In this document: positions 4,512-18,014 of the stretch, one piece after another
How the letters are laid out: each line of letters starts with the position of its first letter
Position numbering within the stretch: position 1 is the first letter of the stretch
NCBI GenBank assembly: GCA_003599755.1
Contig: QZJO01000007.1
Span: 41,221-105,220, forward strand
DNA: 64,000 nt
DNA from: Candidatus Parcubacteria bacterium
Lineage (GTDB): Bacteria; Patescibacteriota; Minisyncoccia; Sungbacterales; SURF-37
Reading direction: 5' to 3'
Notes under the pieces: generated by a model
Told to the model about the DNA's origin: nothing
The model's database searches: none
Seen by the model: the letters and a program-made list of their open reading frames with translations, nothing else
Position numbers and translations under genes: made by a program

Positions 4512-5213
4512 GGGAATATCCACGAGTATGTCTATTACCACTGCACCAAGAAGTCAAAATTGAAATGTCCCGAACCTTGTATTCGCCAAGAAGAATTGGA
4601 TCGCCAGTTATCATCCCTTATTCAAAAATTTTCTTTGAGACCGGATTGGGCGGAAGAAATGCGGGGAATGTTGGAAAAAGAAAAATCGGAATCCGCCCAA
4701 TCCGCAACCGCTTTTGTTCAGGAAGCCGAAACCAAAATCCGCGCCATACAAACGAAGCTCCAGCGACTTCTTGATGGATATTTGGAGCAAGATATTGAGC
4801 GCGAAATTTACCGAACCGAGAAAGCAAAACTACTTTCCGAAAAGAAGTCGCTGGAAGAGCAAATGGCGCGGATTGAACAAAAGCGGACTGGCTGGCTCGA
4901 ACCGATGATGGAATGGATAAAAGAGGCAGAAAATCTGCCTGAAATCGCGCGGGAGAGCAACCTTTTTGCCAAAAAGGTTACCGTCAAAGAAATCTTTGGC
5001 TCGAACCTCGTCTTGGCCAACCGCGAGGCGCGCCTCACCGCGCCGAGCGGAGAGGATTTGTCGGGGGAATCCGTTTGGGCCGCGCTCCGCGCGGCCACCG
5101 AAATGGTCGGTCAAATTGCAAAAAGTCAGATTTTGGTGCGGTCAGCGGGAATCCAGCGCTGCGCGCCTAGAACCCGTCGCGGCACGCGTCTCCGCCTGCG
5201 GCGGATCCGCTAG
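4512..5213 (+). pseudogene. C-terminal fragment (~230 aa) of a large serine recombinase; catalytic, recombinase and most zinc-ribbon domains are missing
   Basis: ..YVYYHCTKKSKLKCPEPCIRQEELDRQL.. (end of recombinase zinc beta-ribbon), then the characteristic coiled-coil LQRLLDGYLEQDIEREIYRTEKAKLLSEKKSLEEQMARIEQ; homology begins exactly at the TIR boundary; the ORF-track N-terminus (MKKSNSS..GAESGGENGN) is read-through of AT-rich spacer and TIR; two stacked terminator hairpins follow (5223-5242, 5254-5275). Confidence 0.55.
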
Positions 5214-5888: not shown

Positions 5889-7079
5889 TTATGCGGCCGG
5901 CGTCGCTTCGCCCGTTTTGGGCGCGTCATCGGTCACGACACGGTCCGGCTCGCCTCGCTGAAGCTCCGGCGAAGCGGGCATGCCGAGCGCCATGCGGTGC
6001 TCCTTCGCGTCGATCGTGATGATCCGGAATTCCTGCTGGCTGCCGAGGGTGAGAAGCTCTTTCATGCGCGCCTCGGTGCCGAATTCGGAAATATGGGCAA
6101 GGCCCTGGATGTCTTCGTCGAGCTTTACGAATGCCCCGAACGGATTGAATTTCACCACGGTGCCGGTTACCAGATCGCCTTTATGATAGCGCTCTTCCAC
6201 CCGGCTCCACGGATCTTCTTTGAGGGCTTTCAACGAAAGGGAGACGCGCTCGCCTTCGACTGCGATGATTTTTGCCTTCACTTTTTGGCCGATGGAAAGC
6301 ACGTCGGCCGGATTCGTGATAAGCTGCCAATCAATTTCGGAAATGTGCACGAGTCCTTCGAGGCCTTCGCCGAAGCGGACAAACGCCCCGAACGACACGA
6401 GCCCCGCTACGTCGCCTTCGATCACGTCACCGACCTGGTAGGCGGACAATTTCTGACGCACGAGTTCCGTTTCGCGCGTTTTCTCGGAAAAAATGAGCTT
6501 TTCCTCGTTCGGATCGATGTCCAGAATCGTCACGGTCATGTCCTGGCCCACGAGTTTCTTAAGCTCCTCAAAGATTTTTTCCTTATCGCCGCCTTCAACC
6601 CGCGGATAATGCTCCTGGGAAAGCTGGGAAGCGGGGAGGAACCCGCGCATGCGCTGGAATTCAAGAATCAGGCCGCCGCGGTTGGCATCGAGCACTTTCA
6701 GAGTCAGCGGTTCGCGCGTTTCCATCAATTGGCGCAGGTCCTGCCAGCTCTTCTCGCGGCCCGCTTCCTTTAGCGAGAGCTCCACGTATCCCTCATCGTT
6801 GTCTACCTCGACGACTTTGGCGGTTACCGCGTCGCCGACGGCGAGGCCACGTACGATTTCGGTCGCCGCATAGTATTCGCGGCCGTAGACAATGCCGGTG
6901 CCACGGGCGCCTAAATCCACGAAAATGCGGCTGCCGCGCTTTTCAATGACTGTCCCGTCTACGATATCGCCGATTTTAAGAAATGTTCCGGGCTCGCTTT
7001 TCTGTTTTAAGAGCACCTCCATGGGGTGGCGGGCGCGGGCCAGAGCAGCGGTTTGGTTCTTTGCGATATTCCGTTCCAT
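5889..7079 (-). CDS. rpsA: 30S ribosomal protein S1 (four S1 domains)
   Basis: Repeated S1 motifs (GDVIEGDVAGLVSFGAFVRF..GLVHISE; GTVVKFNPFGAFVKLDEDIQGLAHISE); start set at the internal ATG (MERNIAKN..) because upstream ORF residues overlap the divergent hydrolase gene; 7022 is an alternative start. Confidence 0.8.
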   Translation of the reverse strand: MERNIAKNQTAALARARHPMEVLLKQKSEPGTFLKIGDIVDGTVIEKRGSRIFVDLGARGTGIVYGREYYAATEIVRGLAVGDAVTAKVVEVDNDEGYVELSLKEAGREKSWQDLRQLMETREPLTLKVLDANRGGLILEFQRMRGFLPASQLSQEHYPRVEGGDKEKIFEELKKLVGQDMTVTILDIDPNEEKLIFSEKTRETELVRQKLSAYQVGDVIEGDVAGLVSFGAFVRFGEGLEGLVHISEIDWQLITNPADVLSIGQKVKAKIIAVEGERVSLSLKALKEDPWSRVEERYHKGDLVTGTVVKFNPFGAFVKLDEDIQGLAHISEFGTEARMKELLTLGSQQEFRIITIDAKEHRMALGMPASPELQRGEPDRVVTDDAPKTGEATPAA

Positions 7080-7187
7080 ACGTACCCGAACACTATAGCC
7101 GGATGCCCGCTGATTGGCAAGATGCCGCATAATTGAGGCCTTTTCGGCCCGGGCCGAATATGCTACCCTTGAGTGGCCCCCAACCCT

Positions 7188-7844
7188 ATGACGATCATGT
7201 GGTACGGCCACGCCTGCTTCAAAATCGAGACGCGCGAGGCCACCCTCGCCATTGATCCGTTTTCCAAAAATATCGGCATCGCCGCGCCGCGGTTCCAGGC
7301 CGACGTGATACTCATGTCGCATGAACATCCCGCGCATGCCAACGCCGAATCGATTGGCGGCACGCCGCGCGTGATCACGGGGCCGGGGGAATACGAGGTC
7401 AAAGGGGTCGCGATCACCGGCATCCCGTCGTTCCACGACGCGGCAAAAGGCCAAGAACGCGGCCTCAATACGATTTGGCGCATCACGGCTGACGGCATGA
7501 CGATCGCGCACCTCGGCGATTTCGGCGAAAAGGATCTACGCGCGGAGACCCTCGAGGCGCTCGGCGCAGTCGATATCCTCCTGATTCCCGTGGGTGGCGC
7601 GCCGCATACCATTGCCGGCGAAACCGCAGCTGCGATCGCAAACCGCATCGAGCCTAAAATCGTGATCCCGATGCACTACGCGATCCCAGGCCTCTCGGTG
7701 GACATAGCTTCGCCCGACGCGTTCTTGAAGGCGTTCGGCGCAAGCGCTCCCGAACGATTGCCCAAGTTCGCCATCCGCTCCAAAGAATTGCCCGCAGAAG
7801 AAGAAACCCGTTTGGTGTTGCTCGCCGCGGGCGGCGAACGATAG
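7188..7844 (+). CDS. MBL-fold metal-dependent hydrolase (UPF0173/YtkL-like)
   Basis: MTIMWYGHACFKIE.. and the SHEHPAH (HxHxxH) motif; the ORF-track start at 7173 is a GTG 5 codons upstream. Confidence 0.7.
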   Translation: MTIMWYGHACFKIETREATLAIDPFSKNIGIAAPRFQADVILMSHEHPAHANAESIGGTPRVITGPGEYEVKGVAITGIPSFHDAAKGQERGLNTIWRITADGMTIAHLGDFGEKDLRAETLEALGAVDILLIPVGGAPHTIAGETAAAIANRIEPKIVIPMHYAIPGLSVDIASPDAFLKAFGASAPERLPKFAIRSKELPAEEETRLVLLAAGGER

Positions 7845-7853
7845 CGTCCTCGT

Positions 7854-8381
7854 ATGGCATCGGAATTCCTCGGCAGATTGCGCAACCGGCCGGAACGGGA
7901 GCGCAAGATTCTCGGCATATCGGTCTACGTAGCAATCGCCGCGATCTCGATCGCGCTTTGGGTCGGATCTGTCCGCCACGCGATCGTCGGGATCGGCGCG
8001 CCCGAAACGGATACCCGGGAATTGCCCGGACCGCTCGAGAGTATTGGCAGGGAAATTTCGCAGTTCACCAACGCGGCAGGGGACCTCGTTTCTAAAACCG
8101 CTTCGCTCGGCGCCCAGCTTGGCGCAATCCGGCCCGGCAATCCGGACGTACCGGTGCTCGTGACGACTTCAACGCCCCCGGCGACAGACGCCGGGCAGGC
8201 GTCCGTCGCATCGGCCTCGAGTACAAAAACCGCTCCATCCGCACCCAGAGCTCCGGCCGACGCGCCAGCGCCGCAAACCGCGGCCGAACCCGCCGCGGCA
8301 ACCAATGAGCGAAGCGCCTGGGCCTCATTCAGCGCATGGATCACGAACTGGTTCGGATCAGATGAATCGTATAATCGATAG
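7854..8381 (+). CDS. hypothetical membrane-anchored Ala/Pro-rich protein
   Basis: One N-terminal TM helix then low-complexity region; no family recognised. Confidence 0.4.
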
Positions 8382-12915: not shown

Positions 12916-13359
12916 ATGCCCCGTATCTTCCGTATTGCGTTGTTCCTCACCGTGCTTGCGGTCTTTGTTCCCGTTTCGGCCGGCGCCCAAAGCGGCCTCG
13001 TACCCTGCACAATTACCCAGTGCCACATCTGCGATCTTGCGGAACTACTCAAGCGCGTCACGGACTTTTTCATCTTGCGCGTCGCGCTGCCCGGTTCCGC
13101 GCTCTTGTTCGCACTCGGCGGGATCATGCTCTTGATATCGGGCACGTCGGAACAGCGCCGCACGCAGGGCAAAACGATTATTTGGCGCACGGTCATCGGC
13201 ATCGTCATCATTCTGCTTTCATGGACATTCATCGATACGCTCATTAAAGTACTGACTGGAACCACCGCTGCTTCGGGGTCGGATACGTTCTATCCGGGTA
13301 AACTCGGTCCGTGGAACGAATTCAATCTAGAAAAATGCAAAGAAGGTTTCGCACCATGA
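12916..13359 (+). CDS. TrbC/VirB2-like pilin paralog 1
   Basis: Signal peptide (..FVPVSAGAQ), Cys pair (CTITQCHIC), then two TM helices separated by GTSEQRRTQGKTIIW; stop overlaps the next start (ATGA). Confidence 0.55.
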   Translation: MPRIFRIALFLTVLAVFVPVSAGAQSGLVPCTITQCHICDLAELLKRVTDFFILRVALPGSALLFALGGIMLLISGTSEQRRTQGKTIIWRTVIGIVIILLSWTFIDTLIKVLTGTTAASGSDTFYPGKLGPWNEFNLEKCKEGFAP

Positions 13360-13691
13360 TGGTCCGCACTGCGACACTCCTTACCTCCGTTCTCGCGTTC
13401 GCATCGCCCGTGCATGCGCAGACGGTTACTATTATCAATCCGCTCTGCCCTGGATCGACTTGTACGTTTGACGTTATTTTCGACCGCCTCACCAACTATG
13501 CGCTACTCGTGCTCGGGCCGATCGCCGTTATCATCATTCTTTGGGTCGGCTTTACGTATATGACAAGCGGCGGGAGCCCCGAGCGGATAAAGCAAGCCCA
13601 TCGGGCGCTTCTCTGGGCCATCGTCGGCATTGCCATCGTTCTTTTGGCCAAAGGCATATACGCGATTATCAAGACCGTCCTCGGCCCTTAG
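13356..13691 (+). CDS. TrbC/VirB2-like pilin paralog 2
   Basis: MMVRTATLLTSVLAFASPVHAQ signal peptide; CPGSTC; TM-SGGSPERIKQAHRALLW-TM. Confidence 0.6.
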   Translation: MMVRTATLLTSVLAFASPVHAQTVTIINPLCPGSTCTFDVIFDRLTNYALLVLGPIAVIIILWVGFTYMTSGGSPERIKQAHRALLWAIVGIAIVLLAKGIYAIIKTVLGP

Positions 13692-13692
13692 T

Positions 13693-14031
13693 ATGTCATC
13701 ATCAAAGCTCGCCCTTTTCGCGCTCTGCATCGGCATCATCGCCGCGCCGTTTTTCGCTGACGCCGCCATCACCTCCGCGTGCGATATCGTGACGCTCCTG
13801 AACCGCATCAAGGAATGGTTCGGCATCCTGGTCGGCATCATCGCGACGATTGCAATCCTCTACGCCGGCCTGTTGTTCATGACCGCGGCCGGCAGCGATG
13901 AGCAGATCACCAAAGCGAAATCCACGCTGCTCTGGGCATTGGTCGGCATCGCCGTCGCGCTGCTCGCCTCGGGAGTCGTGGCATTCGTGCAAACCATCGT
14001 CGGCGGCACCCTTCCCGCCAATTGCCCGTAA
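13693..14031 (+). CDS. TrbC/VirB2-like pilin paralog 3
   Basis: MSSSKLALFALCIGIIAAPFFADAA; TM-AAGSDEQITKAKSTLLW-TM; start is 2 nt after the previous stop. Confidence 0.6.
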   Translation: MSSSKLALFALCIGIIAAPFFADAAITSACDIVTLLNRIKEWFGILVGIIATIAILYAGLLFMTAAGSDEQITKAKSTLLWALVGIAVALLASGVVAFVQTIVGGTLPANCP

Positions 14032-14065
14032 CGCAGCCGACGCACCCATAAGTGAATTGCGCCCT

Positions 14066-14094
14066 TTGACGAACTTGGCAACTCTTTCTATGCT
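14066..14094 (+). promoter_or_regulatory. sigma70-like promoter for pilin paralog 4
   Basis: TTGACG (14066-14071), 17-nt spacer, TATGCT (14089-14094). Confidence 0.4.
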
Positions 14095-14186
14095 AGGAAT
14101 ACGGATTTTTGTTCATTCCGCAGGGTAGCCCTGCCTAAAGGTCGGCCCGATAGCGCATAATGTCAGTACTCATCATTCTCTCCACC

Positions 14187-14531
14187 ATGCAAAAAACCGT
14201 TCGCGCTTCACTCTTCGCCCTTGCTCTCCTTGCCGCTCCGTTCATGGCATCGGCCCAGATCGAGGACATCTGTGATGTTCTCACTCTCGTGGAACTCGTC
14301 CTGACCTGGTTCGGGATCCTGGTCTTCATCGTCGCGGTTATCTTCATTCTCTACGCCGGCTTCCTGTTTATTACGAGCGGCGGCAATGAAGAAACGCGGA
14401 AAAAAGCGAGCTCAACACTGCTCTGGGGCCTGATTGGCATCGCCGTCGCACTGCTTGCGACCAATGCCATTCCATTCGTCCAGGCAACCGTTGGCGGGCA
14501 AACATTCGACAACTGCGTCCCCAGCGTCTAA
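14187..14531 (+). CDS. TrbC/VirB2-like pilin paralog 4
   Basis: MQKTVRASLFALALLAAPFMASA signal peptide; TM-SGGNEETRKKASSTLLW-TM; followed by a perfect terminator. Confidence 0.6.
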   Translation: MQKTVRASLFALALLAAPFMASAQIEDICDVLTLVELVLTWFGILVFIVAVIFILYAGFLFITSGGNEETRKKASSTLLWGLIGIAVALLATNAIPFVQATVGGQTFDNCVPSV

Positions 14532-14817: not shown

Positions 14818-14853
14818 TGTACTACTATTACGCTATAGCGTAATAGTAGTACA
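14818..14853. promoter_or_regulatory. 36-bp perfect palindrome, putative operator, abutting the PaaX-like start codon
   Basis: tgtactactattacgcTATAGCgtaatagtagtaca; perfect dyad symmetry; last nt is the A of the ATG. Confidence 0.5.
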
Positions 14854-15416
14854 TGCAACGAAAAACGTGGTATTTTATTGGGAAAACTGTTCTTTCGATC
14901 ATCGGCACGGGTGCTCTTGTTTTGAGTGCCGCGGCTGTTCCAAACGCTGCACAGATGCTCGCTCCGTTAGTCGCCAAACGCCGCGGAAAAACGAATAGGC
15001 GTGCGCTTGAGCGTACAATCCATGCGCTGCAACGCCAGCGACTCATTGAATTCGTGCCTCATCACGGAAAAATTGTCATGCGGATTACCGAAGGTGGCAA
15101 GAAAAAATTGCGTGAATTTGACTTCGATACGATGTCGCTCGCGGTGCCGCAACACTGGAATAAACAATGGACCGTAATACTGTTTGATATTCCTGAAGAA
15201 AAGAAGTCTGCGCGGGACGCACTCAGAAGAAAACTACGGGATCTGCAATGCTATGCGCTCCATCGCAGCGTCTTCGTGCATCCAGCGGACGGACGCGATG
15301 AAATTGATTTCGTTATCCAGACATTCGGGATTCAAAACTACGTGATTCATTTTCGAACGCCATCCCTGGGCTATGGCGAGGGCAGGGCTCGCGCTCATTT
15401 CAAATTACTGCCATAG
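14853..15416 (+). CDS. PaaX-like transcriptional regulator with a predicted N-terminal TM segment
   Basis: Winged-helix-like ALERTIHALQRQRLIEF, then the PaaX C-terminal signature WNKQWTVILFDIPEEKKSARDALRRKLRDLQCYALHRSVFVHP. Confidence 0.5.
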   Translation: MQRKTWYFIGKTVLSIIGTGALVLSAAAVPNAAQMLAPLVAKRRGKTNRRALERTIHALQRQRLIEFVPHHGKIVMRITEGGKKKLREFDFDTMSLAVPQHWNKQWTVILFDIPEEKKSARDALRRKLRDLQCYALHRSVFVHPADGRDEIDFVIQTFGIQNYVIHFRTPSLGYGEGRARAHFKLLP

Positions 15417-15457: not shown

Positions 15458-15547
15458 AAAACTCCGCCATTCATGCATGTCGCATGATATTGCGCAATCA
15501 TGGCTAGCGATATATTATGCATCAGGCATAAATAAATCAGCCGTAAT

Positions 15548-15819
15548 GCCGATGTAGCTCAGCGGCAGAGCAACTCCATGGTGGGATCGCTCTTGATCTC
15601 CCGCCCCCGCAACGGGAAACTGTTGCGGCGTACCCCGAATAACGGTTCACGGCCCGGCACGGGCATATAGACCGTGGCCCTGCCTCAGGGCCCGAACGAC
15701 TGACAAGGGGGATCCGGTCCAACGCGGATCAATATACAGTCTAGCCCTCTGATGGTGCCCCAGAAACAAGAGGTAGTACGCGAAGGAGTAGGTCGTGGGT
15801 TCAATTCCCACCATCGGCT
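15548..15819 (+). tRNA. intron-containing tRNA, best reading tRNA-Thr (GGU), split in the anticodon loop
   Basis: 5' exon GCCGATG-TA-GCTCAGCGGCAGAGC-A-ACTCC-auGGU and 3' exon aa-GGAGT-AGGTC-GTGGG-TTCAATT-CCCAC-CATCGGC-T give a perfect 7-bp acceptor, D arm, 5-bp anticodon stem and T arm only when ~200 nt are removed; the only junction obeying group I rules gives loop AUGGUAA. Confidence 0.55.
15583..15782 (+). ncRNA. ~200-nt intervening sequence in the tRNA anticodon loop, probably a small group I intron
   Basis: Bounded by an exon-terminal U and an intron-terminal G; GNRA-capped hairpin gcaacgg-GAAA-ctgttgc; GACTG..CAGTC candidate P7 pairing; size comparable to the smallest known tRNA group I introns. 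Confidence 0.45.
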
Positions 15820-15850
15820 CGAGCATATATCCGCATAACCCGCCACTCGC

Positions 15851-16012
15851 ATGCCGCAAGCAAATCTGATCAGATTCCAATGCTCCGCCTGCAAGCGCTA
15901 TACCTATTGGTCGCGCAAGAATGTGCGCAAAAGCGAAGGCAAACTTGCGCTGAAAAAGTTCTGCCGCTGGTGCCACAAGCAGACGCAGCACAAGGAAGCG
16001 AAAAAAACCTAA
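15851..16012 (+). CDS. rpmG: 50S ribosomal protein L33
   Basis: MPQANLIRFQCSACKRYTYWSRKNVRKSEGKLALKKFCRWCHKQTQHKEAKKT (53 aa, four-Cys zinc ribbon and LKKxC typical of L33); absent from the ORF track because it is shorter than 60 aa. Confidence 0.75.
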   Translation: MPQANLIRFQCSACKRYTYWSRKNVRKSEGKLALKKFCRWCHKQTQHKEAKKT

Positions 16013-16140: not shown

Positions 16141-16250
16141 TCCAATTGGCACGTCGGCTGCAACTATACGATTACCCGGGGCTACCGTGATCTGTCTGAA
16201 TGCCGAACTGAAAAAGCGTCTCCATGCGCTTGCGTCAACACTGGTGCGCC

Positions 16251-18014
16251 ATGGATGAACTTATCCGCGAACTGAAGCGCCAAGGAGTGCTCCGCTCGCC
16301 GCTTGTCGCGGAGGCCTTTGGCCGCGTGGATCGCAAGGACTTCGTGCGTCCCGAGGATGCGGCCGAGGCGTACGCAAACTGGCCGCTGGCCATCGGCGCT
16401 GGCCAGACCATTTCGCAACCCCAGACCGTCGCCTTCATGCTCGATCTTCTCGACCCGCGGCCGGGCGAGCGTATTTTGGATGTGGGCGCCGGATCCGGCT
16501 GGCAATCCGCCCTCCTCGCGGCGATCGTCGGCAAGCAGTCGGGCGGCCCGCCTGCCCGCTTCGCCGAAGCTCCCGCTTCGCCCGCGAAGCGAGGCGAGTC
16601 AGCGAGGCGAGCCGGGCGGGCAGGCACGGTCGTCGCGATCGAGCGCATTCCGGAACTCTGCCGTTTCGCCCAAACAAATTTAAAAAAATACGAGGCCATT
16701 ACCGCGCCGACGGTTCAGTTCATCTGCGGCGACGCGACTACGGCGCTCGAGCGCGCCGAGCCGTTCGATAAGATCATCGCCGCAGCCGCCGCAAAAGGCG
16801 ATATTCCCGCTTCCTGGCGCGCGCTTCTGAAACCCGGCGGCGTCATCGTCGCGCCGGTGGACGACGCGATCATCCGCCTGACAAAAACCGCCGACGGCGC
16901 ATGGCGCACCGAACGATTCGAGGGATTCGCATTCGTTCCGCTCATCAGCGGCACGGACCAGCCGAAAGCCGGATTCGGAAGCCCCGCCACCATCGCGACC
17001 GGCGCGATCGCCCTGGCCGTCGGCGCAACGCTCTGTGCGCTGGCAATGGTCGTGCCCGTCATTCTTCCCGGTCCCGTGACGCTTGATGTGCCGCGGGGCG
17101 CGGGATCCCAGGCCATCGGCCGGCTGCTCGAATCCCAAGGCCTCGTCTGGTCGCGCCATTTGTTCGTCGCATATGCCGTGCTCACGAATACCGCCGGCAA
17201 CCTAAAACCCGGGGCGTATTCGTTCGACGGCGCGGTGACCATCCCGGAAATCATCGGCGAATTGGCGCGCGGCAGCGCGAACGAACGCGTTATCGTCATT
17301 CCCGAAGGATGGGACCAGCGCACCCTGGGGATATATCTGGAAGAGCGAAACATCATGCCCGCGGAGCGCTGGTGGGATACGAACGGCTGGCCGGCGACCG
17401 ATTATCGTATCGCGACGCACCGGCCCGCGCTCCGCGATTTTTCTCAGGAGTTCGCGTTTCTGGCCGACAAACCCGCATACGTGGGACTCGAAGGATATCT
17501 CTATCCCGATACCTACCGCATTTGGGCCGATGCTTCACCCGAAGATATCGCGCGGCGCATGCTGGAAAACTTCGATGAAAAACTGACGCCCGCGTTGCGC
17601 ACGGAAATCGCGCGCCAAGGCAAAACTATATTCGAAGTCGTGACGCTCGCCTCGCTCGTCGAGCGCGAAACCGGAGAGCCGAGCGAACGGCCCGTCATCG
17701 CCGGGATTCTTTGGAAACGGCTTTCGGCCGGCATGCCGCTGCAGGTGGACGCGACCGTCAGTTATGCCACGGGCCGATACGCGACGCCCAGCGGCCCTTT
17801 ACTCGAGATCGATTCGCCGTACAACACGTATCGCTATGCGGGATTGCCGATCGGCCCGATCGCGAATCCGAGCATCGAATCCATCACCGCCGCGCTGTAT
17901 CCCATCCGTTCCGCCTATTGGTATTACCTTCATACGCCCGACGGCGACGTGGTCTTCTCGAAAACCCTCGAGGAGCACGAGGCGGCCAAGGCGCGCCACC
18001 GCGCAGGGCGGTAG
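16251..18014 (+). CDS. in-frame fusion of protein-L-isoaspartate O-methyltransferase (Pcm) and MltG/YceG endolytic transglycosylase
   Basis: N-half has Pcm motifs (ISQPQTVAFMLDLL, ILDVGAGSGWQSALLA, FDKIIAAAAA); one TM helix; C-half has YceG/MltG signatures (DTYRIW, SLVERET, DATVSYATG); no stop between halves; start set at MDELIREL. Confidence 0.6.
   Translation: MDELIRELKRQGVLRSPLVAEAFGRVDRKDFVRPEDAAEAYANWPLAIGAGQTISQPQTVAFMLDLLDPRPGERILDVGAGSGWQSALLAAIVGKQSGGPPARFAEAPASPAKRGESARRAGRAGTVVAIERIPELCRFAQTNLKKYEAITAPTVQFICGDATTALERAEPFDKIIAAAAAKGDIPASWRALLKPGGVIVAPVDDAIIRLTKTADGAWRTERFEGFAFVPLISGTDQPKAGFGSPATIATGAIALAVGATLCALAMVVPVILPGPVTLDVPRGAGSQAIGRLLESQGLVWSRHLFVAYAVLTNTAGNLKPGAYSFDGAVTIPEIIGELARGSANERVIVIPEGWDQRTLGIYLEERNIMPAERWWDTNGWPATDYRIATHRPALRDFSQEFAFLADKPAYVGLEGYLYPDTYRIWADASPEDIARRMLENFDEKLTPALRTEIARQGKTIFEVVTLASLVERETGEPSERPVIAGILWKRLSAGMPLQVDATVSYATGRYATPSGPLLEIDSPYNTYRYAGLPIGPIANPSIESITAALYPIRSAYWYYLHTPDGDVVFSKTLEEHEAAKARHRAGR

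Follow-up and report, generated by a model that had tools for sequence, protein, structure and literature searches.

Introns that interrupt tRNA-Thr(GGU) between positions 36 and 37 were described by Nakagawa et al. (2026 mSystems, PMC13011429, Table 1) in complete genomes of Patescibacteria, two of them Paceibacteria (GCA_001029635.1 and GCA_030583745.1) and one from Saccharimonadia (GCA_016700375.1); the name 'divergent group I introns' used for them is credited in that paper to Castelle et al. 2018. These introns are reported as 'not detected' by the Rfam group I model RF00028 and are found by the tFind covariance model of Williams, two of the three are miscalled by ARAGORN as Arg(GCG) with an intron at 34/35, and in phylogeny they form a long branch within IA, adjoining other Patescibacteria tRNA introns (PMC13011429). 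Both tFind and a covariance model for tRNA introns of bacteria were introduced by Williams 2020. By tRNAscan-SE the three genomes with a Thr intron have 2 tRNA-Thr genes and most relatives have 3 (PMC13011429), and because of this difference in tRNA counts the split gene is suggested to be their sole GGU isoacceptor gene. The splicing assays of Nakagawa et al. concern the Asn and Asp introns only, and the same authors speculate on regulatory roles for such introns (PMC13011429); in the accessible literature no test of self-splicing was found for an intron of the Thr type.

The other tRNA introns of Patescibacteria share with the Thr type the phylum, the position in the anticodon loop and, mostly, the lack of homing-endonuclease genes, and their self-splicing has been shown in vitro; they differ in the tRNA, in the site (35/36) and in being detectable by RF00028. 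The IC3 introns in Azoarcus tRNA-Ile(CAU) and Agrobacterium tRNA-Arg(CCU) are about 200 nt long, have no ORF and fold into a minimal P1-P9 structure without P7.1/P7.2, in which the GAAA loop L2 docks on a receptor in P8. They resemble the Thr introns in lying in the anticodon loop after position 36 and in having U-1 and omega-G, whereas the core sequence is different, the Thr introns are placed in IA instead of IC3 by Nakagawa et al. (PMC13011429), P3 is shorter in the Thr class and the Thr class is unseen by RF00028. In Williams 2020 the Azoarcus and Agrobacterium introns are designated 'Ile2.5Ug' and 'Arg.5Ug', respectively.

The locus considered here lies on a stretch of 64,000 nt (the window) and is very probably the tRNA-Thr(GGU) gene of a Saccharibacteria-like CPR bacterium, split at U36/A37 by a 200-nt, endonuclease-free group I intron of the published class. 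The split gene occupies 15548-15819 on the plus strand, and its insert (15583-15782, exactly 200 nt) separates positions 36 and 37. The 5' exon (15548-15582, +), GCCGATG TA GCTC AGCGGCA GAGC A ACTCC ATGGT, comprises the 5' strand of the acceptor, the D arm, the 5' strand of the anticodon stem (ACUCC) and the loop nucleotides A32 U33 G34 G35 U36, while the 3' exon (15783-15819, +), AA GGAGT AGGTC GTGGG TTCAATT CCCAC CATCGGC T, supplies A37 A38, the 3' strand of the anticodon stem (GGAGU), the variable loop, the T arm, the 3' strand of the acceptor and the discriminator U; CCA is not encoded at its end. The perfectly complementary anticodon stem across about 200 nt, pointed out in the initial annotation, is present letter by letter and its coordinates hold. 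The removal of the insert leaves a flawless cloverleaf of 73 nt called tRNA-Thr(GGT) by ARAGORN, in agreement with the earlier description of a nearly canonical tRNA-Thr body. When all the junction shifts that keep a 7-nt loop were considered, a 5' exon ending in U together with an insert ending in G was obtained only with an exon ending in CCAUGGU, an insert running from GGGAUC to UACGCG and a 3' exon beginning with AAGGAGU; the junction at 36/37 that had been singled out by this rule, with anticodon GGU in the loop, thus holds.

The split gene is missed by standard ARAGORN and by the Rfam tRNA model, both of which find the five other tRNAs of the window. ARAGORN in intron mode detects it, with the junction placed three bases upstream and the isotype given as Arg(GCG). 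The spliced body is closer to the intronless tRNA-Thr of relatives (70-74% identity) than to the remaining tRNAs of the window (53-67%).

The helices of the insert follow the order P3-P4-P5-P6-P7-P3'-P8-P7'-P9, that is the pseudoknotted core of group I introns, and every helix was placed in the window copy, on the plus strand. P1 (15580-15605) is formed by the anticodon GGU (15580-15582) and the intron nucleotides G1-C6, which pair with the internal guide GAUCUCCCGCC (15595-15605), and its wobble U36 (15582)·G21 (15603) marks the 5' splice site. The hairpin P2 (15607-15628), with the GAAA tetraloop L2 at 15616-15619, is the GAAA-capped hairpin noticed earlier. P3 pairs CCCC (15633-15636) with GGGG (15707-15710), forming a pseudoknot together with P7; P4 pairs ACGGUU (15642-15647) with GACCGU (15670-15675) and encloses J4/5, P5 (15652-15664) and J5/4; P6 is the hairpin GGCCCUG/CAGGGCC at 15676-15692. 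In the segment 15693-15706, J6/7 (CGAAC) precedes the 5' strand of P7 and J7/3 (ACAA) joins it to the 3' strand of P3. P7 pairs GACUG (15698-15702) with CAGUC (15737-15741), and its pair G15698-C15741 is the proposed G-binding pair. The hairpin P8 (15711-15730, GAUCCG...CGGAUC) is followed by J8/7 and the 3' strand of P7 (15731-15741), AAUAUA and then CAGUC, which constitute the S element. The 2-bp P9.0, GC (15744-15745) with GC (15780-15781), encloses the hairpin P9, CCUCU (15746-15750) with AGAGG (15769-15773), and the last intron nucleotide, G15782, is omega-G, with the 3' splice site right after it.

Minimum-free-energy folds recover most of these helices (z = -2.2 and -3.5). The 200-nt insert holds no plausible ORF and therefore no homing endonuclease. 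A convincing P10 was not found, the best candidate being a non-contiguous 4-bp GGAG/CUCC that is two nucleotides off. P3 is short for group I introns (4 bp in the window copy, 3 bp in the family described below), and the window copy also departs from the family consensus in a plain P8 without the receptor motif and in a J5/4 that is 3 nt longer.

The core can be compared with the intron of T4 td, a classical self-splicing intron of subgroup IA2. The R element (J6/7-P7) reads AACGACUA in td and AACGACUG here, and the S element (J8/7-P7') reads GAUAUAGUCUG in td and AAUAUACAGUCUA here. In particular, the motifs AACGACUR and AUAYAGUCU agree with T4 td and the RF00028 consensus; AACGACUR is common to the family, T4 td and the R element of that consensus, while for the S element the family consensus is AAGAUACAGUC and that of RF00028 is AAGAUAUAGUC. 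As judged from these sequences, the core motifs are of the group I, IA-like type, while the rest of the intron escapes scoring by RF00028. The GACTG...CAGTC pairing that had been likened to P7 is present and was placed as P7 by comparison with td and with the consensus of RF00028; the register GACUG/CAGUC thus rests on analogy, and the alternative register GAC (15702-15704)/GUC was set aside on the same grounds. Differences from td are also evident, since the latter is 1016 nt long, carries the I-TevI gene and P7.1/P7.2 and is scored by RF00028, and an HMM of the Thr family, based on sequence only, does not match it.

No group I match was obtained with RF00028, either in the whole window at the gathering score or in a 371-nt slice (15500-15870) at E≤10, nor on homologous copies in tRNA and outside tRNA; as a positive control, the intron of T4 td is detected by the same tool (40.3 bits, E=4e-8). 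The initial annotation had looked to Rfam for a group I match and had counted a missing one against the intron. Because the same miss is published for the tRNA-Thr class (PMC13011429), this result speaks of the model and not of the RNA, and the absence of an Rfam match is not a valid refutation. In fact, the window copy shares with the published Thr(GGU) introns the tRNA, the anticodon, the insertion site and the phylum (one of the published cases being from Saccharimonadia), as well as the lack of an RF00028 match and the ARAGORN miscall as Arg(GCG); as compared by description, nothing substantive sets them apart. Given this identical behaviour, the kind is already known, and the window intron belongs to the published 'divergent group I intron' class of Patescibacteria tRNA-Thr(GGU).

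Homologues were collected by a metagenome scan with the pattern AACGACTGACAAGG-N15-45-ATACAGTC, which matched at least 120 stretches. Among the matches listed, 111 of 128 regions are split tRNAs, and in all but a few of these a junction with a 5' exon ending in GGU, an intron ending in G and a 3' exon beginning with AA (U-1/omega-G) is available; they yield 95 unique introns (169-232 nt) and 91 different sets of exons. All 95 introns share one insertion site in tRNA-Thr(GGU), and every spliced product is called Thr(GGT) by ARAGORN. For the unspliced genes, ARAGORN gives a mixture of isotypes (Arg, Pro, His, Leu and Thr). With the window copy excluded, the 94 homologous introns gave a profile HMM that matches 15574-15790 (E=3.6e-32) and nothing else in the window, so the insert is not a chance resemblance. 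The smallest member among the matches listed (L025 4732-4900; L035) has all the core helices in 169 nt; in complete genomes, the shortest group I intron reported from a bacterial tRNA has 184 nt (Nakagawa et al., PMC13011429). A search with the L33 protein encoded next to the split gene (E cutoff 1e-8) returned one cluster, a closer relative whose L33 is 87% identical and which carries, at the identical position, a homologue of 232 nt with the core segments kept and the peripheral helices rewritten. The tRNA that carries it shows compensatory changes in the acceptor and T stems, and therefore the split tRNA is under selection. No match to the intron was found by blastn in 50,697 phage records.

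The 95 unique introns were aligned with MAFFT, and pairing was counted over a structure that included P3, P7 (as a pseudoknot) and P9.0. The base-pair cells are paired in 94.7% of cases versus 76.4% after shuffling (none of 500 shuffles, which ignore phylogeny, comes up to 94.7%) and at most 44.3% when the partners are slid; the covariation score is 0.507 versus 0.153 in the same phylogeny-blind shuffles. Of the 54 pairs, 37 have undergone compensatory changes, with examples in P1, P2, P5, P6, P8, P9 and P9.0, and RNAalifold, run without a supplied structure, returns the anticodon stem, P1, P2, P4, P5, P6, P7, P8 and P9. The anticodon-stem pairs, which enclose the intron, are 99.4% paired in the family, with compensatory changes. 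With the full group I topology and this covariation over 95 homologues, the group I reading of the insert proposed in the initial annotation is upheld.

At the level of single helices, the GGU/GCC of P1 is invariant in the family, the U·G at the 5' splice site is found in 94 of 95 members and the next two pairs covary (GU/AU/GC/UA/CG); the guide, by pairing with the anticodon in P1, would account for the restriction of the tRNA family to GGU. All the pairs of P2 (9/9) and of P9 (6) covary, as do the base of P5, all five scored pairs of P6 (94% of cells paired) and, strongly, the four basal pairs of P8 (AU/UA/GC/CG). P9.0 is paired in 98.9% of cases, with pair types GC/AU/UA/CG and CG/UA/UG, and the omega-G column is G in 95/95. 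The CCC/GGG of P3 is paired in 100% of the family, its fourth pair being peculiar to the window copy. P4 is invariant, although it was left free in the search pattern, and hence is without covariation; P7 (GACUG/CAGUC) is invariant in the set and without covariation because it was fixed by the search pattern.

The loop of P2 is of the GNRA type in nearly all members and is correlated with the form of P8. An 11-nt-receptor-like internal loop in P8 (CUAAG...UAUG) accompanies GAAA in L2 in 37 of 59 introns versus 3 of 36 for other loops (p=1e-7), and where L2 is GYAA or GCGA, P8 tends to be short and plain (alignment A1, columns 60-63 and 208-242). The Azoarcus intron has an L2-P8 contact of that kind. 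The window copy departs from the correlation in having a GAAA loop yet a plain P8.

The neighbours of the split gene are, on one side, a solute-binding protein gene, three tandem T4SS-pilin-like genes, tRNA-Leu(UAG) and a gene for a PaaX_M-domain protein and, past the split tRNA, rpmG (L33), tRNA-Trp, a PCMT-YceG fusion, a gene for a NYN-domain protein and PNPase. An L33-based scan of GTDB genomes found 3 loci, all with an intronless tRNA-Thr; in the relatives L001 and L002 an uninterrupted tRNA-Thr(GGU) lies directly upstream of rpmG. From this intronless gene at the syntenic site, the split gene is independently identified as tRNA-Thr(GGU). The closest L33 loci in GTDB genomes belong to MAGs of 'Candidatus Saccharibacteria' (67% and 53% identity over 53 aa), and no exact match to the L33 protein of the window is on record. 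These loci and the CPR-typical gene content, for example the T4SS-pilin paralogues, place the host in the Patescibacteria (CPR); at class level the same sequences tentatively suggest a Saccharibacteria-like bacterium, the assignment being tentative because the L33 identities are modest.

Some features of the neighbourhood are of separate interest. The three tandem small ORFs at 12916-14531 (+), of 147, 133 and 123 aa, each match T4SS_pilin, and four are found at this place in the close relative L004. At 16224-18014 (+) a 596-aa ORF fuses a protein-L-isoaspartate O-methyltransferase domain (two matched stretches) to YceG/MltG, while the YceG gene of L004 encodes 368 aa without this N-terminal domain. 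The PaaX_M-domain gene (14853-15416) is located upstream of the tRNA-Thr/rpmG/tRNA-Trp block in the window and downstream of it in L004 (3408-3968), which is a local rearrangement around the tRNA cluster.

By analogy with characterized group I introns, catalysis would be due to the RNA itself and presumably independent of proteins. The anticodon GGU would pair with the internal guide GCC to give P1 with its U36·G wobble, and a free guanosine bound at the P7 pair G15698-C15741 would then attack after U36. In the second stage, the 2-bp P9.0 would put the terminal G15782 into the same site and the 3'-OH of U36 would attack after G15782, joining AUGGU to AAGGAGU and releasing the intron. The predicted spliced junction is ACUCCAUGGU followed directly by AAGGAGU, and the predicted sequence of the ligated exons is ACUCCAUGGUAAGGAGU. 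Throughout the reaction the anticodon stem ACUCC/GGAGU presumably holds the exons together, standing in for a real P10; with the pre-tRNA intron of Anabaena, the anticodon stem is reported to align the exons in this way (Zaug et al. 1993).

It is unlikely, on the whole, that the RNA adopts the group I fold and nevertheless needs a protein cofactor for splicing in vivo, or that splicing acts as a conditional regulatory gate on the supply of tRNA-Thr(GGU). The minimal P3 (3-4 bp), the lack of a P10 and the complete failure of RF00028 could be read in this way, as could the regulatory roles considered by Nakagawa et al., whose assays are on Asn and Asp introns (PMC13011429); however, every core element and tertiary contact (L2-P8, P9.0, J8/7) is conserved, even at 169 nt, and the occurrence of the family in genes on viral contigs indicates that it appears functional in another genetic context. 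Far less probable is a pseudogene with an inert insertion or a degenerate intron, the decoding being left to another tRNA. Although the invisibility of the gene to standard tRNA finders would suit a pseudogene, the 91 distinct exon sets among the matches listed are all perfect Thr(GGU) cloverleaves, compensatory changes are seen in the acceptor, T and anticodon stems, and the helices of the intron are kept by covariation; moreover, the published genomes with the intron have 2 other tRNA-Thr versus 3 in relatives (PMC13011429), and by these counts the split gene appears to be the only one for the GGU isoacceptor.

The remaining two explanations can practically be dismissed. One of them moves the junction and turns the gene into tRNA-Arg(GCG) or tRNA-Pro(GGG), as in the Arg(gcg) call of ARAGORN in intron mode, but such a junction leaves an intron ending in C or an exon ending in G, the ARAGORN isotypes scatter within the family while the GGU and AA exon ends with an intron-terminal G are available in nearly every member, and the same miscall is documented in Table 1 of PMC13011429. 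In addition, the syntenic intronless genes are Thr(GGU) and the spliced body is closer to tRNA-Thr (70-74% versus 53-67%); the U-1/omega-G rule and consistency within the family led to the rejection of the other junctions, with which the gene would be read as Arg, Pro or Thr with G37. The other is a protein-removed bulge-helix-bulge intron of the archaeal/eukaryal kind, or a group II intron, and only a negligible chance is left to it: the site in the anticodon loop beside position 37 does resemble the canonical archaeal/eukaryal one, but the context is bacterial (bL33, bacterial tRNAs, gyrA, PNPase), the fold is a group I P1-P9 with a pseudoknot and has no bulge-helix-bulge motif, and a group II intron would be much longer than 200 nt, the Rfam searches of the window and of the 371-nt slice having given no group II match. 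A group I intron of the published Thr(GGU) class remains the preferred reading, on the basis of its anatomy, its homologous family, covariation and synteny.

The kind of intron being known, the locus keeps its value for annotation, for the study of how Thr introns are spliced and for a possible connection with the introns of phage genes. Since the standard tRNA finders miss the gene or label it tRNA-Arg(GCG), reduced genomes seem to be without tRNA-Thr(GGU) and completeness estimates fall; the Rfam group I model is blind to the class, and a dedicated covariance model from the about 100 sequences collected would close this gap. Should the genome have no further gene for the GGU isoacceptor, a condition raised in the initial annotation and indirectly supported by the tRNA counts of the published complete genomes, the decoding of ACC and ACU would hang on the predicted RNA-catalysed step.

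Members of the family are also found outside tRNAs. A scan of viral contigs gave 42 copies on 38 IMG/VR contigs (L132-L169), and no copy lies in a tRNA. At all readable 5' ends the last exon nucleotides are GGU, GGUU or GGAU, and the guide covaries with them, being GCC with GGU, GGCC with GGUU and GUCC with GGAU. On L016 (corresponding to the IMG/VR contig L153, and also L167), one protein-coding gene at 6187-8079 has three introns of the tRNA-Thr family, at 6274-6469, 6746-6935 and 7569-7752, which are 196, 190 and 184 nt long by the rules of a U-ending exon, a G-ending intron and P9.0, and are matched by the tRNA-derived HMM with E=2e-28, 8e-24 and 2e-21. Their removal connects exons of 87, 276 and 633 nt into one continuous ORF, and the spliced protein has no match in PHROGs, Pfam or PDB sequences; the gene comes after a 357-aa coiled-coil ORF, and from gene order it could be guessed to encode the capsid. 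RF00028 does not match the four non-tRNA copies submitted to it (three on L016, one on L061).

It is conceivable, as a tentative proposal, that the intron in tRNA-Thr represents a single branch of a separate lineage of miniature group I introns, which is uncovered by curated models and occurs also on viral contigs. The traits of such a lineage are a length of 169-232 nt, a 3-bp P3, IA-like R/S elements, an IC3-like L2-P8 periphery and a GGU-like 5' exon as sufficient target. Its presence on viral contigs, with up to three copies per gene, would fit a spread by reverse splicing between CPR tRNA-Thr and genes of phages, perhaps of CPR, without homing endonucleases.

Other group-I-like sequences were seen in the same material. 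Near 8070-8130 of L016 there is a fourth, different core of this type (AACGACUAAG...GCGAUAGUCUGAAC). Another element, with only the R and S motifs in common (AACGACUGACAAGG...GAUAUACAGUCUGAAC), is found on L030 (about 4700-5100), L050, L055 and L133; it has no Rfam match and lies in AT-rich, phage-like DNA beside an amidase-like gene.
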